In this document: one piece after another, positions 3,024 to 33,175 of the stretch
Layout: each line of letters opens with the position of its first letter
Numbering within the stretch: the stretch's first letter is position 1
Source: a virus
Taxonomy: Duplodnaviria > Caudoviricetes
Length of the DNA: 33,175 nt
Direction: 5' to 3' (one strand)
Virus record (IMG/VR): IMGVR_UViG_3300032226_000317
Coordinates: 1-33,175 of that record
Made by a program: the position numbers and the translations under genes
Notes under the pieces: model-generated
The model's database searches: none
What the model was told of the DNA's origin: nothing
Seen by the model: the letters and a program-made list of their open reading frames with translations, nothing else

Positions 3024-3031
3024 TATATTTG
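3024..3031 (+). promoter_or_regulatory. Bacteroidota primary-sigma -7 element
   Basis: TATATTTG matches TAnnTTTG and lies 24 nt upstream of the ATG at 3056; the -33 element is weak. Confidence 0.65.
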
Positions 3032-3055
3032 GCTATCAATTAAAAACAATACACA

Positions 3056-3160
3056 ATGAAAAAAGCATCTACAATCCTTCGCTACGTTATCGCAGCCATC
3101 GTAATCTTCGCACTTCTTAACTATTGTCAAGAGTTAAACGATTGCCTCGCTAAGTATTAA
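3056..3160 (+). CDS. 34-aa single-pass membrane peptide (not in ORF track)
   Basis: MKKASTILRYVIAAIVIFALLNYCQELNDCLAKY; A-rich leader directly after the promoter. Confidence 0.65.
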   Translation: MKKASTILRYVIAAIVIFALLNYCQELNDCLAKY

Positions 3161-3179
3161 AATCAAAATCAATAACAAC

Positions 3180-3851: not shown

Positions 3852-3880
3852 TATCTTCACACCATCAATAACAAGAACAA

Positions 3881-5271: not shown

Positions 5272-5517
5272 CTACTGCTGCACCTTGCGATAGCCCTGCT
5301 TCCACAGAAACCTACCCAGTGCTTCGCCTTCAGCATCAACTTTCTCCTCGCTCCACTCAGGCTGAATATGGTGAAGGTACTCATGGACAAGCACAATCAG
5401 GTAGCGCATCGGTGGCAATGTAGGGTCAATTTCAATTACGTTATCACAGTACAAACCATCAGCGCGTTCCCTGCCCAACTTACGATGTACGACTTTTGGA
5501 TGTGGCTTGCCTTTCAT
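5272..5517 (-). CDS. minimal HExxH zincin-like metalloprotein
   Basis: ADGLY...IEIDPTL...VLVHEYLHH...WSEEKV. Confidence 0.7.
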   Translation of the reverse strand: MKGKPHPKVVHRKLGRERADGLYCDNVIEIDPTLPPMRYLIVLVHEYLHHIQPEWSEEKVDAEGEALGRFLWKQGYRKVQQ

Positions 5518-5522
5518 TGTGC

Positions 5523-5530
5523 TATATTTG
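5523..5530 (+). promoter_or_regulatory. Bacteroidota -7 promoter element driving a non-coding interval
   Basis: TATATTTG with no + strand ORF downstream. Confidence 0.55.
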
Positions 5531-5534
5531 CGAC

Positions 5535-5612
5535 TTAGTGTAATGGTTCATTGCATTATTGTTTTTGTTATTGATTGATAGAATAAGGCTCCTAACGTGG
5601 AGCCTTCTTCTT
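5535..5612 (+). ncRNA. candidate small RNA (about 75 nt)
   Basis: Promoter upstream. 5' hairpin UAGUGUAAUG-GUU-CAUUGCAUUA (10 bp, two G:U pairs, so it folds better on +), then a U-rich linker, then a terminator hairpin. Confidence 0.5.
5585..5612. terminator. intrinsic terminator, possibly bidirectional
   Basis: AAGGCTCC-TAACGT-GGAGCCTT followed by pyrimidine-rich tails on both strands. Confidence 0.7.
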
Positions 5613-6651
5613 ATCTAATCTTTCCATTAACAATACGGTAGTTATTTACTTCAAATTCGCCCGTATCCATTATACGCACGTGTGCAAATCCGTGGTGGTG
5701 CTTGTTGATGGGCATGTAGTCAGGATGCAGCTCGCACAGACACGCCACACTCCAACACGTTGTTAGCTTGCCATTGATGTTCGGCTCGGTGTGTTCACTT
5801 GCCTGGTGATGGTGTCCACACAATGCGCTGTCTTTTGCTCTTAGGAATAATCCGCGTGCGATGTTTACAGGACTAAAGACCGATGCACCTAACTCATGCC
5901 CGTGTAAGATGGTCAACTTACCTGCATGAATGATTTGCTTATCGGGAATAAAGGTGATGTTGTGTTGATCTAAGTGCATGAGCGATTCAAAGTTGAACTC
6001 ATCCATACCCAACAAATCAGGTGCATTGCGCATGATATAGTGGTCGTACCGTACATCATGGTTTCCGCACTTGTAATATATAGCAGCGTTGGGAAATAGC
6101 TTGCGTAACGTGGCAAGAAATTGCCTTGTCATTAACACCTCATGTCCAAAGTTTCGTTTGCGCGGGTCTTTCTCAAATCGGCTGATAGCATAGAAGTCGA
6201 TTATGTCACCATTGAGCAGGATAGTGTTGACCTCATTCTCCAGTCCGTACTTAAGTGCAAGCGTTAACGCCTGAATATTGTGGTACGGCACGTGAATATC
6301 CGATAGCAACAGGATGTTGTTGTGGTTTATCGGTAGCTTAAAGGGTTTGTAGTTACTTTCCTGCGACGGTGGCAGGTCGAGCGGATTGCTCTGTTCAGGC
6401 ATCAACTCGTTAACGATGTTGCCAAAGTCACCTAAATGGTTTTCAAGCTTAGCCAAATTTCCATTTAGCTTCGGTATAAGGGGTGCATCGTGTTGCAGGT
6501 TATGTCTTTTACGCCAACTGAAATACAAACGCTCAAATGAGCCGTATTTCATGTCAATCTTATAACGCTTCATAGCGGCACGAATCCGGTCTGCTATCGT
6601 ACCCTCGCCTGCGTGTATCTCTTTGTAGATTTCCGCATATTGTCCCTGCAT
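5611..6651 (-). CDS. calcineurin-like metallophosphoesterase
   Basis: SDIHVP, NGDIID, GNHD, HGH and GHHH motifs. Confidence 0.9.
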   Translation of the reverse strand: MQGQYAEIYKEIHAGEGTIADRIRAAMKRYKIDMKYGSFERLYFSWRKRHNLQHDAPLIPKLNGNLAKLENHLGDFGNIVNELMPEQSNPLDLPPSQESNYKPFKLPINHNNILLLSDIHVPYHNIQALTLALKYGLENEVNTILLNGDIIDFYAISRFEKDPRKRNFGHEVLMTRQFLATLRKLFPNAAIYYKCGNHDVRYDHYIMRNAPDLLGMDEFNFESLMHLDQHNITFIPDKQIIHAGKLTILHGHELGASVFSPVNIARGLFLRAKDSALCGHHHQASEHTEPNINGKLTTCWSVACLCELHPDYMPINKHHHGFAHVRIMDTGEFEVNNYRIVNGKIR

Positions 6652-29526: not shown

Positions 29527-29557
29527 TTTGCATACTGAAAATAGTTGCCTATATTTG
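29527..29557 (+). promoter_or_regulatory. consensus Bacteroidota promoter for the early operon
   Basis: TTTG-N19-TATATTTG. Confidence 0.8.
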
Positions 29558-29569
29558 TCCCCATCAATA

Positions 29570-29577
29570 CAAAGGTA
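29570..29577 (-). promoter_or_regulatory. -7 element facing the sigma gene
   Basis: TACCTTTG on the - strand, about 60 nt upstream of the sigma start; no clear -33 element. Confidence 0.5.
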
Positions 29578-29593
29578 AACAAAAACAAACGCA

Positions 29594-29833
29594 ATGAGAG
29601 AAGAAGATTTCTACACCGAAGACCACACATGCATCCACTGCGATTGGCAGGTCAATTATTACACCGAGGTTAAAGAATTAGCTTCTGCTTTATGGATTCA
29701 ATACAATGCAGGTCTTGAAGGCGAAGACCGCGCGGCCTATTGGGATGCCTTTGTAGATGAAGCTATTGAGATTATAGCCAAAGACAAAAGCACAGCGACT
29801 ACATGTCTTAATTGCTATTCACCATTCGAGTAA
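29594..29833 (+). CDS. hypothetical protein with two CxxC motifs
   Basis: CIHC and CLNC; first gene after the early promoter. Confidence 0.65.
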   Translation: MREEDFYTEDHTCIHCDWQVNYYTEVKELASALWIQYNAGLEGEDRAAYWDAFVDEAIEIIAKDKSTATTCLNCYSPFE

Positions 29834-29854
29834 ATAATTTAATCAATAAATACA

Positions 29855-30190
29855 ATGACAAACGTTATCGAAGTAAACACCTACCACCCAGTGGTAAACG
29901 GTACAACCCAAATCACACTACCTTTCTTCTACACTTGTGGAAGCTTTGGCGACATCTATTGTTGCATGTCTGCTGACATGGTATTAACCACCGTTTTGAG
30001 TTACAGCACCAACAAGCAGATTGAAACGCGTAAATACGACGATTCAATGCAGGTGCAGTCAAGACTCGAAATAGATATGCGCGACAAGCGTTATCGGGCT
30101 ATTGATGAGGCTGTATTCATGCACATTTTTAGCGAAGCACACCGAGAAGTGTTCTACGCTGTTAACCCTCAACTTAAACCAAAGCTATGA
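29855..30190 (+). CDS. hypothetical protein
   Basis: A-rich leader; ATGA-coupled to the next gene. Confidence 0.65.
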   Translation: MTNVIEVNTYHPVVNGTTQITLPFFYTCGSFGDIYCCMSADMVLTTVLSYSTNKQIETRKYDDSMQVQSRLEIDMRDKRYRAIDEAVFMHIFSEAHREVFYAVNPQLKPKL

Positions 30191-30423
30191 GAAAGCACAA
30201 CGAACTGAACGGATTGATAGCGCGAACAGTGGGCAGTAATGCTGCCCTACTTCGTGCGATGCGTAAGAGCAGCACACCAATATCAGACCGTACACTATAC
30301 AACTGGCTATATGATGCCAAGACCATCAAGCTTCAGCAACTCATTAACTTGTCGAAGGCTATGGATCTACCGGTGTGTGAACTAATCAAATCAATAACAA
30401 TTAAAAACGAAGGAGATGAGTAA
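30187..30423 (+). CDS. Cro/C1-type HTH regulator
   Basis: ISDRTLYNWL...IKLQQLINLSKAMDLPVCELI. Confidence 0.75.
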   Translation: MRKHNELNGLIARTVGSNAALLRAMRKSSTPISDRTLYNWLYDAKTIKLQQLINLSKAMDLPVCELIKSITIKNEGDE

Positions 30424-30997
30424 TCCAATCAAAAAGAAAATGCGCAAGGATATGATTCCAAGTCGTAGTGATATCTTGTATATAGTAAAGCACTTTGATA
30501 CACTTAGCTTTGAACAGTTACGCAGGAACTTAAACGTGAGCAATGCCAAACTTATACAATGGTGCAAGTTTATCTTCACTACCGATAAGAAGGAAGCTAA
30601 GTGGAATGAGATGAATAAGAAGCTCGATACTCTGGAGTTTCATGAAGAGTTCACCGATTCGATGCAAAGTGAATACGATGTTCACGACATACGCCGCGTC
30701 AATGGAAAGAACATGTACATAGTAAAAAAGAAAGTGGTTAATGAGAATCGTATGTGCTACCTGATTACTATCAATAATGAGAATAGCATGATAGTACGGT
30801 TTGATATACCTGTCGAGCGCACATCGGTAGCTTATTGTCCTGTGTCACTTGGCTGTGATTATGATGTTCACTCGTTAGGCCATTGGGAGTATCAACAGCT
30901 AGAGCATGATTTGCCCGTGATCCATTTGGAAGCGGATGAGGATTACATCGGTAAGTTTTGGTTAGCCATACATAACACTATGATGCATGAAGCATGA
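30416..30997 (+). CDS. hypothetical protein, possible N-terminal HTH
   Basis: SFEQLRRNLNVSNAKLIQW resembles an HTH; overlaps both neighbours. Confidence 0.6.
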   Translation: MSNPIKKKMRKDMIPSRSDILYIVKHFDTLSFEQLRRNLNVSNAKLIQWCKFIFTTDKKEAKWNEMNKKLDTLEFHEEFTDSMQSEYDVHDIRRVNGKNMYIVKKKVVNENRMCYLITINNENSMIVRFDIPVERTSVAYCPVSLGCDYDVHSLGHWEYQQLEHDLPVIHLEADEDYIGKFWLAIHNTMMHEA

Positions 30998-31349
30998 GGA
31001 AAGTAAAATACAGCAACGATGTGTTGAGTGGTTTAGGTATTCCTTCCCGCGCACATTGATTGCTTCATTTCCTAACGGGGTGTTCATTGGCGGTACACCA
31101 GTGCAACGGGCCAAACGTTGGAACATATTAAAGGCTGAAGGGGCCATGCCCGGTATGCCTGACTTAATGATATGCATTCCATCGGGCGGATACCACGCGC
31201 TGTTTATCGAGATGAAGACTGAGAAGGGAAAACTTTCAGACACGCAAAAAATCGTTCACGCACAGCTTATCAATGCAGGATACTGCGTCAAGGTGTGCAG
31301 GTCATTTGAAGAATTTACACAAACTATTAAAACATATATTAAATTATGA
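30987..31349 (+). CDS. VRR-NUC domain nuclease
   Basis: ESKIQ, GMPDL and FIEMKTEKGKLSDTQ. Confidence 0.85.
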   Translation: MKHEESKIQQRCVEWFRYSFPRTLIASFPNGVFIGGTPVQRAKRWNILKAEGAMPGMPDLMICIPSGGYHALFIEMKTEKGKLSDTQKIVHAQLINAGYCVKVCRSFEEFTQTIKTYIKL

Positions 31350-32512
31350 TGGATGCATTAGCATTGCGTGAAAACGCACAGGCGCAATTAGCGCAAATCA
31401 AAACACTTGAATCGGGTGTTGATTATCTTAACAAAGTCAAAGCAATTGAAGTATGGGCGAAGGCAGAAAAGAAAGATGCCGAGCTGCAAAACATGATAGC
31501 TGAACAAAAGATACGCACGCAGCGAATCTTAGGACAATTGTTGAAGGAAAGTGATTTGAAAAGAGGTAACGCCCCCGGTAGTAATAACAGAGAAATTGTA
31601 AAGTCGAAAGATACGACTTTACAAAGTTTTGGAATTAGCAAAGATGAAAGCAGTACATTTCAAAAGATTGCCGCACTACCTGAAGAAGTGTTTGAACGCG
31701 AGATAGCAGTTGCCAAAGAAGAAAGCGAAAAGCGTGTTGAACTAACTACGAGCCGGGTTTTGTTTGCTGCTAAGGAGTACGAGCAACAAAAGAAGAAAGA
31801 CCAGCACAAACAAGATGTCATGGACAAGCGTGTCCAAAACATTTTTAAAGATAGTTTTATAAATGGAGATTGTCTTGCTGTTTTAGAAACTATACAAGAT
31901 AATTCTATTGATATTGTTATTACTGATCCACCTTACGGTATTTTGTACAAATCAAATCGATCTAAGTTTGAGGATGCAATTACAAAGCGTGGTTTATTAA
32001 ATGATGGTGCTGATGAAGCTTTTACCTTACTTAATAAAACATGTGAAGTATTAAGTCGCAAGTGCGCTGAAAATAGTCATCTGTATTTTTTTTGTAGTTG
32101 GTCTGTATTTAGTCAATTTGAAAAAATCATTTCAGAATACTTTATAATTAAGACACCGATTGTTTGGGATAAGGGAAATAAAGGCAGCGGTGATTTGGAG
32201 AATGATTGGGGCAACCAAACGGAAATCATTATCTTTTGCATTCAAGGTAAAAAAACTATCAATTACCGACGCGGTAATATACTTAGCGTTCCAAGATTGC
32301 ATAGTAGCAAGATGGTTCATCCAACACAGAAACCTATTGAACTAATTAATGAACTTCTGAATGTAAGTTATTTTGAAGGTGATTTTGTAGTTGATCCATT
32401 TATGGGTTCAGGCACAACCATTCATGCCTGTAATGCTAAATCTATTCGCACATTGGGTATTGAATTAGACAATGAAATGTTTGAAATTGCTAAATCTTAC
32501 AATCATGAATAA
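31346..32512 (+). CDS. DNA amino-methyltransferase (m6A/m4C, beta class) with N-terminal helical domain
   Basis: TDPPY precedes HPTQKP and DPFMGSGTT. Confidence 0.9.
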   Translation: MMDALALRENAQAQLAQIKTLESGVDYLNKVKAIEVWAKAEKKDAELQNMIAEQKIRTQRILGQLLKESDLKRGNAPGSNNREIVKSKDTTLQSFGISKDESSTFQKIAALPEEVFEREIAVAKEESEKRVELTTSRVLFAAKEYEQQKKKDQHKQDVMDKRVQNIFKDSFINGDCLAVLETIQDNSIDIVITDPPYGILYKSNRSKFEDAITKRGLLNDGADEAFTLLNKTCEVLSRKCAENSHLYFFCSWSVFSQFEKIISEYFIIKTPIVWDKGNKGSGDLENDWGNQTEIIIFCIQGKKTINYRRGNILSVPRLHSSKMVHPTQKPIELINELLNVSYFEGDFVVDPFMGSGTTIHACNAKSIRTLGIELDNEMFEIAKSYNHE

Positions 32513-32981
32513 TGTTAGAGCATTAGAAAAAAAGTACCATGCCGATATTGGTACTCATCTACGTAAATCCTTGCGCGGATTTCACGAAAGATATGCTATC
32601 ATGAAACCGTCCACAGAATTTCAAGATGGCAACTATTCTTTTGATTTGATATACCAGCTAAATTTTGTCGTATCTGTGCGCATCAGGCAGCATAAATACA
32701 TGAAGTATAAAGACATGACAATAAGGTATAAAAGCAAAGGTGGTGGTCTTACTGAATTTGATAAAATTAAACAGGGTTACGCGAAAGTTTATTTTTACGC
32801 ATATGAATCAGAAGACAGAAATAGTTTGGTAAAAGTAAGAATTGTAGATGTTGATGCTATTAGAAAATTAATAGCACAAGAAAGATATTCAGTTTACAAA
32901 AATGATGACGGCACTGAATTAGCGACTTTTCGGTTTTCAGATATTGCTACTTTTGGTGGCGCAATCTATCAATACGATTAA
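32505..32981 (+). CDS. methyltransferase-associated protein, possible restriction-endonuclease-like fold
   Basis: Overlaps the MTase stop; QDGNYSFDL...VSVRIR...DMTIR...TEFDKI...YFYAY. Confidence 0.5.
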   Translation: MNNVRALEKKYHADIGTHLRKSLRGFHERYAIMKPSTEFQDGNYSFDLIYQLNFVVSVRIRQHKYMKYKDMTIRYKSKGGGLTEFDKIKQGYAKVYFYAYESEDRNSLVKVRIVDVDAIRKLIAQERYSVYKNDDGTELATFRFSDIATFGGAIYQYD

Positions 32982-32993
32982 TACAATAATAAC

Positions 32994-33175
32994 ATGGCAC
33001 AAGACCCGGCATTTCTTTTTTACTATCAAGATTTCTTAGTAGGCACTGACGATATGGACAATGATGAAGTGGGGGCGTACATACGCTGCCTATGTCATCA
33101 GGCATCAAAAGGATGCATTAGTGAAAAACATATGATGAAGATATGTTTAAGACAAGATGTGTACACGAGCGTATC
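32994..33175 (+). CDS. N-terminus of DUF1376/YdaU-like replication initiator (3'-truncated, not in ORF track)
   Basis: MAQDPAFLFYYQDFLVGTDDMDNDEVGAYIRCLCHQ; frame is open to the end of the window. Confidence 0.8.
   Translation, partial: MAQDPAFLFYYQDFLVGTDDMDNDEVGAYIRCLCHQASKGCISEKHMMKICLRQDVYTSV

Follow-up and report, generated by a model that had tools for sequence, protein, structure and literature searches.

The 33,175-base virus record IMGVR_UViG_3300032226_000317, which we analysed in its entirety and call the window, carries at positions 5523 to 5612 of its plus strand a compact unit that is probably the gene of a trans-acting small RNA (sRNA). The predicted RNA of about 78 nucleotides (nt) is complementary to the leaders of two early recombination genes of the same phage, those for a RecE-like exonuclease (start 3881) and a Sak-like annealing protein (start 3180), and it likely lowers their translation. 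We put the probability of this reading at roughly 0.72. A preliminary description of the window had proposed a trans-acting sRNA that masks initiation regions without Shine–Dalgarno sites, and our comparisons support that proposal. Established from sequence are the anatomy of the unit, its conservation, its plus-strand polarity, its complementarity to leaders, the concentration of matches in early leaders and the co-variation between lineages. The complementarity to the annealase/exonuclease pair that was described stands, and the shut-off of that pair we infer from where the RNA would pair.

All coordinates given for the unit in the preliminary description were confirmed by direct reading of the sequence. 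The unit opens with a Bacteroidota sigma-A type −7 box, TATATTTG; boxes of this type are placed at −12 to −5 (PMC9723704). The 5′ hairpin has 10 base pairs with two G·U pairs, as described. Folding of 5535–5612 gives this hairpin, an open linker and a terminator, at −25.6 kcal/mol on the plus strand (z −4.9) versus −18.3 kcal/mol on the minus strand. The terminator tail is degenerate in the window itself (CTTCTT) and is a run of T in most relatives. The unit is single-copy in the record and appears to be noncoding. A search of sequencing runs listed no RNA data set that holds it, which speaks neither for nor against transcription. An 11-codon plus-strand and a 9-codon minus-strand open reading frame (ORF) in the window were considered as mini-ORFs and rejected, as neither is conserved (absent in 29/79 and 51/79, respectively). 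At gathering score, neither the window nor seven related loci matched any Rfam 15 family, and the hits at 5400–5700 are at chance level (E 1.6–4.8). By sequence, the unit thus has the own promoter, intrinsic terminator and noncoding character of a trans-acting sRNA. It also has an exposed, conserved seed that co-varies with distant initiation regions, with the reservation that a test on close pairs, given below, is not significant.

Relatives were gathered with the flanking metallophosphoesterase and exonuclease genes as anchors, which yielded 95 distinct sequences of the unit at the same place in related phages. A TAnnTTT(G/A) box was the selection rule and is hence present in all 95. It was seen in 43 of the 45 newly fetched loci that extended to the unit's position. 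The counts exclude loci too short for the unit or the leaders, L038/L305 and L466 (similar unit, box outside the rule), L538 and the more distant phages L262–L271 and L273–L279 (no such unit at this place), and L272/L276. In these last two, also distant, the place just after the phosphoesterase stop is taken by a shorter box-to-terminator unit whose open stretch differs. L525 and L537 come from one 69,357-base metagenome contig in which the exonuclease–sRNA region occurs twice, about 35 kb apart, probably through doubled assembly.

Conservation of the unit is that of a plus-strand RNA. Terminator stem positions 2–7 are each paired in 95/95 units, with two to five pair types per position, and the stems contain 77 G·U versus 0 A·C pairs when read as plus strand. 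A tail of at least five U is found in 94/95 units on the plus strand versus 17/95 on the minus strand, and the 5′ part folds better on the plus strand in 82/95. The terminator loop, which also served as an alignment anchor, is AACG in 92 units and CACG in three, despite variable stems. The sequence of the 5′ hairpin varies freely, and one lineage (L450/L453/L455/L458/L459/L478) lacks the hairpin, its seed following directly after the box. Gene 5517, beside the unit on the minus strand, is present in 169 loci and absent in 33 (both counts include repeated contigs). The unit is kept in those 33, which refutes the view that the motif is only a minus-strand leader for that gene.

The seed matches leaders far from its own locus. 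Nucleotides 5559–5575 pair over 17/17 positions, with one U·G, to the bases directly before the exonuclease ATG, in agreement with the preliminary description. The 12-mer match it reported, AATCAATAACAA, occurs exactly three times when both strands are searched: before the Sak-like gene and before gene 30416 on the plus strand, and at 5565–5576, within the unit, on the minus strand. An order-2 Markov model predicts 0.024 occurrences. With one mismatch allowed there are four matches versus a shuffle mean of 0.72, and four were reached by one of 100 shuffles. Beyond the matches reported earlier, we found 11 nt before gene 29594 and 10 nt (3042–3051) before ORF 3056. Among exact complements in the window, the five longest (10–12 nt) include the leaders of 3180, 30416, 3881, 29594 and 3056; one additional 10-mer complement per strand lies away from any start. 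By duplex energy with accessibility, the exonuclease start is the best of 43 (−16.5 kcal/mol), followed by 30416, 3180, 29855 and 218; two of the 43 starts were mis-set and scored zero.

These matches are better than those of shuffled seeds, with z −3.1 for the Sak-like leader and −2.9 for the exonuclease leader; late genes give z near 0, with noise to −0.6. For 21 long contigs we also counted exact sites of at least 10 nt for each genome's own seed in the 32 nt before starts taken from a simple ORF caller, with 200 shuffles. Plus-strand leaders hold 50 sites versus a shuffle mean of 3.9 (maximum 11), and minus-strand leaders hold four versus 2.4. The exonuclease site follows closely on a promoter-like box. 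Of 70 distinct exonuclease leaders, 55 have a TAnnTT(T/C/A)(G/A) box 3–4 nt ahead of ATCAA. If this box occupies −12 to −5, the exonuclease mRNA would start where the seed pairs.

Co-variation in related phages, which had been suggested as a check, was found: seed and Sak/exonuclease leaders change together between lineages. The advantage of a leader's own seed is −1.69 kcal/mol for Sak and −1.50 kcal/mol for exonuclease (p 0.0002; 59 and 69 distinct pairs). Across 72 distinct seed–Sak–exonuclease triples, own pairing reaches −25.2 kcal/mol versus −21.8 kcal/mol for others' (p 5e-5). Grouped by clade, the same test gives p 2e-5 for 26 clades, 4e-4 for 13 and 0.008 for five. Another 16 held-out triples, fetched later from the same phage group and partly from the same lineages, give −26.6 versus −21.5 kcal/mol (p 5e-5). 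When all 88 triples are pooled, with both leaders, p is <1e-4 for 16 lineages, 0.0002 for seven and 0.009 for five, and the own seed is best for 5/7 lineages. Individual switches can be read directly. The L202–L213 lineage has ATCAATTTA leaders and a seed matching them exactly or via G·U; in L440, seed and both leaders alike have lost ATCAAT; L436 and L450–L458 have gained UGUGU in the seed, paired with ACACAC. For the leaders of L436, L440, L450, L453 and L458, 0/72 other seeds pair as well as their own.

The exonuclease and Sak leaders appear to be firm targets by these comparisons, and those of 30416, 29594, 3056 and 29855 weaker ones. Gene 30416 has z −3.0 and an own-seed advantage of −0.87 (p 0.004). 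The leader of 29594 has z −2.7, only nine pairs and co-variation that is not significant; that of ORF 3056 has z −1.6 and lineage-level co-variation of −1.0 kcal/mol (p 0.003); that of 29855 has z −1.1 (p 0.12). The preliminary description had noted 9-nt matches before 29855 and 9220. Both are present, but gene 9220 was rejected as a co-evolving target: the lineage with the altered seed still has ATCAATAA in this leader. ORF 3056 is conserved, is the first gene behind the early promoter box and has no PHROG or Pfam match. At 32948–33175 a TACTTTTG box precedes an ATCAAT-containing leader and ORF 32994, which runs off the record end. That leader is a further possible target, and the ORF resembles a replication initiator.

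Several results weigh against a trans-acting RNA or limit what the co-variation can carry. The 72-triple test gives p 0.17 at three clades, and without the L202–L213 lineage a four-clade test gives p 0.04. Phylogenetically independent close pairs are not significant (median p 0.05–0.22 on three trees); own pairing is better in 11–14 and worse in about eight of 22–25 pairs. The signal therefore rests on a few deep switches, roughly three to five by our own estimate, and small indels in the U-tract would be tolerated; the genomes also look mosaic. The late phosphoesterase leader shows a lineage effect as well (−1.4, p 0.009), yet its z against shuffles is −0.5. Part of the signal may therefore be lineage-wide leader drift, or this leader may be a weak target. 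A mirrored-strand G·U test was mixed, favouring the plus strand for Sak (43/59) but not for exonuclease (18/69). In the 21 genomes, sites outside leaders also exceed shuffles (60 versus 32.5), best matches are modest in some genomes (G003, G014), and the seed–leader duplexes are AU-rich.

Could the unit act in cis only, as terminator of the early operon and antisense to the late phosphoesterase–5517 region, with leader matches that reflect a shared A/C-rich habit? The non-significant close pairs and the lineage effect at one late leader fit this explanation. So does the location, where early and late blocks converge and where a terminator scan found no other plus-strand terminator between 5271 and 5585. 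Unit and early operon lie on the same strand and probably use one terminator; the unit nevertheless has a box of its own, and an opposite-strand gene usually separates the two. A terminator needs neither the conserved upstream promoter nor the open seed, however, and the unit persists without gene 5517. Matches are concentrated in early leaders, while most other leaders, and a second unit described below, lack co-variation. We consider a cis-only role unlikely.

Alternatively, a phage protein could bind the repeats as operator-like DNA sites, and the unit would hold one more of them in reverse. Many of them lie just behind promoter boxes, and the phage encodes a helix-turn-helix (HTH) protein. 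Yet the sites are biased by strand and position to leaders, a promoter and a plus-strand terminator flank the reverse copy, and the seed–leader difference in L202–L207 is a G·U-compatible change. Operator sites are a very improbable account of this pattern.

A sister phage group and a second unit served as controls for the trans-acting reading. The sister group has no such sRNA unit in the stretches fetched, and ATCAAT occurs in 2/40 of its Sak leaders versus 43/48 in the in-group. The second promoter–seed–terminator unit lies on the minus strand of the window between gene 16134–14065 and a scaffold-like gene, and recurs at that position in 40 loci, as 23 distinct sequences. It shows no co-variation with Sak/exonuclease leaders or with any other leader tested. 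Among leaders, it matches best that of the gene following the exonuclease (z −1.7), without co-variation, and its target is possibly in the host. The (A/C)ACG loop (5594–5597 in the window) is kept in the terminators of both window units.

Of the 120 loci found when viral contigs were searched for the pattern of box, seed and loop, almost all lie outside the known group and are chance matches. L143 (10010–10065)/L201, from an unrelated phage, has a similar U-rich seed and terminator but no box, and was not counted. That phage has helicase and primase-like genes, and a terminator with an AAACGA loop follows an early gene. In L107, L146, L147, L163, L190, L193 and L194, the same leader tag, AATCAATAACA, stands seemingly directly before an ATG on the strand opposite the pattern hit. 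The one record of this phage group that was scanned (G032) has no sRNA unit.

The unit and its candidate targets are placed among the other features of the window in Table 1. Identification of the annealase rests on structure: the ten top Foldseek matches of protein 3180 are all human RAD52 (best E 9.8e-4; model mean predicted local distance difference test score 72.7, moderate). The protein falls in an Atlas cluster with Rad52_Rad22 in 11% of members, and has no Pfam match and no informative PDB sequence match. The Sak-like call is thus supported by the RAD52-fold match.

Table 1. Position of the candidate sRNA unit, its putative targets and other features in the window (aa, amino acids; UTR, untranslated region).
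Feature	Position	Strand	Basis or remark
Gene block: terminase 1675, Sak-like 3180, exonuclease 3881, small genes	up to 5271; also 29594–32981	+	
Gene block: structural and lysis genes, sigma-factor-like gene		−	
TATATTTG box and leader of 34-aa hydrophobic ORF (3056–3160)	3024..3055	+	weaker candidate target
Leader of Sak-like annealase gene	3167..3178	+	putative target, 12-nt exact complement
Sak-like single-strand annealing protein, RAD52 fold, 223 aa	3180..3851	+	Foldseek on predicted structure
Promoter-like box TATCTTCA	3852..3859	+	4 nt before exonuclease target site
Leader of exonuclease gene	3864..3880	+	putative main target, 17/17 nt pairing; likely whole 5′ UTR
Exonuclease, RecE-like, 254 aa	3881..4645	+	PHROG 5715 E 5e-44, PHROG 434 E 6e-12
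81-aa gene flanking the sRNA unit	5272..5517	−	dispensable for unit; locus comparison
Sigma-A type −7 box TATATTTG	5523..5530	+	predicted transcription start ~5535
Predicted small RNA, ~78 nt	5535..5612	+	fold, conservation in relatives
5′ hairpin	5536..5558	+	
Single-stranded U-rich seed, complementary to early leaders	5559..5580	+	unpaired in minimum free energy structure
Intrinsic terminator hairpin, core 5585–5606, conserved A/CACG loop	5581..5612	+	abuts stop codon of minus-strand phosphoesterase gene
Metallophosphoesterase gene, convergent with unit	5611..6651	−	anchor for collecting relatives
Second promoter–seed–terminator unit	14061–13979	−	TATATTTG box, U/G-rich seed, terminator with AACG loop and U8
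TATATTTG box and leader of gene 29594	29550..29593	+	candidate target, 11-nt match 29578–29588
Site in leader of gene 29855	29841..29849	+	weak candidate target, 9-nt match
HTH gene	30187–30423		HTH call from Atlas
Site 15 nt before ATG 30416	30389..30400	+	candidate target, 12-nt match; inside 3′ end of HTH gene, coding confounds

The host is likely a member of the Bacteroidota because of the TAnnTTTG boxes and A-rich leaders. A GTDB search found no prophage copy; its matches were five short contigs from bins that belong to mixed taxa. The GenBank phage set holds no similar annotated phage. Neither an integrase nor an antirepressor was found among the 43 window proteins and 29 accessory proteins picked from 20 relatives, and the phage is apparently lytic.

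These results bear on what the RNA might be for. It might silence early genes in a carrier or plasmid-like state, or those of a second infecting genome, as immunity rather than lytic timing. P1 c4 and P4 CI are immunity RNAs. The promoter is host-type, so no phage product would be needed; several candidate targets come first after a sigma-A box, and an XRE-type HTH gene is present. With no integrase in the window or the relatives' accessory proteins and no prophage copy in GTDB, we regard an immunity role as improbable. A real RNA might also act mainly on host mRNAs, or on a host RNA-binding protein as a decoy, with the phage leaders secondary. The known phage sRNAs PreS, VpdS and DicF act on the host (PMC12197685), and GTDB genomes offer no integrated copy that would reveal the host here. 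The seeds nevertheless follow the phage's own leaders between lineages. Moreover, the one Flavobacteriaceae genome examined (2.4 Mb), not known as host, shows no enrichment of the leader tag before ATG (6 versus 5 and 10 for controls). We give primary host targets little credence.

If the unit does encode an anti-leader sRNA, host polymerase would make a stable RNA of about 78 nt, from ~5535 to 5612, from the host-type promoter. The open seed would then pair with about −17 to −1 of the exonuclease mRNA and −13 to −2 of the Sak cistron, relative to AUG, and the duplex would block ribosome loading at leaders that lack Shine–Dalgarno sites. Both structure and upstream bases, among them A at −3, tune initiation in Flavobacterium johnsoniae (PMC6847099), so a duplex there would be expected to block loading. 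There is precedent in the phylum, where GibS and FopS of Bacteroides repress by pairing with initiation regions (PMC7366714, PMC11697453). Action on 3056, 29594, 29855 and 30416 would be weaker. Because the RNA and its targets belong to the same promoter class, the stable RNA would accumulate and brake early recombination functions with a delay. Early-operon transcripts that read through to the shared terminator may enlarge the RNA pool, an OppZ-like feedback.

A more general idea is tentative, and we think it less likely than not: integrase-less Bacteroidota phages may time their early programme by RNA, not by a repressor protein. Early transcripts would begin with a short address tag behind host-type promoters. 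One sRNA would read this tag and shut off the recombination module together with other first genes, while a second sRNA with a different seed, from 14061–13979, would serve another set. If the trans-acting reading is true, an RNA that co-evolves with the leaders of its own annealase and exonuclease genes would mean that an apparently lytic phage times its early genes post-transcriptionally. The lineages would offer natural compensatory pairs for testing how an sRNA blocks initiation without Shine–Dalgarno sites, and possibly orthogonal seed–leader pairs for gene control in Bacteroidota.

Our literature searches returned no paper on this RNA. The phage sRNAs described in the covered half of a 2025 review mainly govern lysogeny or target the host; no comparable case is among them, and none comes from a Bacteroidota phage (PMC12197685). 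Two spellings of the seed were absent from six supplementary files of the IMG/VR survey PMC10690425, with files 1, 2 and 4 outside the search, and the RNA may be among the unnamed candidate RNAs of that survey.

Among known systems, GibS and FopS of Bacteroides thetaiotaomicron are similar in being Bacteroidota trans-acting RNAs with a single-stranded seed, an intrinsic terminator and pairing to initiation regions (PMC7366714, PMC11697453). FopS has canonical sigma-A promoters and targets the 5′ ends of polycistrons, and one FopS-like sequence is reported in a phage (PMC11697453). The differences lie in layout, copy number and targets. GibS and FopS carry the seed in the 5′ part, whereas that of the phage RNA usually lies between the 5′ hairpin and the terminator. 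Theirs is a multicopy, RbpB-bound, chromosomal family that targets host metabolism; the present RNA is phage-encoded, has one copy in the window record and matches the phage's own recombination genes. Membership in the FopS/GibS family was rejected for want of an Rfam 15 match at gathering score, in a model search that left the R1 seed letters uncompared.

The c4 antisense RNA of phages P1 and P7 acts in trans on repeated leader boxes and controls the antirepressor operon of a temperate phage. The present RNA was not placed with it: there is no Rfam C4 match and no antirepressor or integrase match, and the best targets are Sak and exonuclease. c4 lowers genes of its own phage by pairing and takes part in the lysis–lysogeny choice of temperate phages. 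The same is described for P22 sar, lambda OOP and aQ (PMC12197685). Our candidate resembles all four in lowering its own phage's genes by pairing, if it acts as proposed, but it comes from a phage in which no integrase was found. Moreover, sar, OOP and aQ are each antisense to one gene (PMC12197685), whereas the targets of the present RNA lie 1.7–2.4 kb and more away. OppZ and CarZ of Vibrio cholerae are also alike, as RNAs from operon ends that pair with upstream cistrons of their own operon and inhibit translation in a negative feedback; they are cut from mRNA by RNase E, whereas the phage unit has its own conserved promoter box (PMC7398697). Judged by its sequence features, the RNA would work like a trans-acting anti-initiation sRNA, yet by the tests made it stands outside both FopS/GibS and c4.
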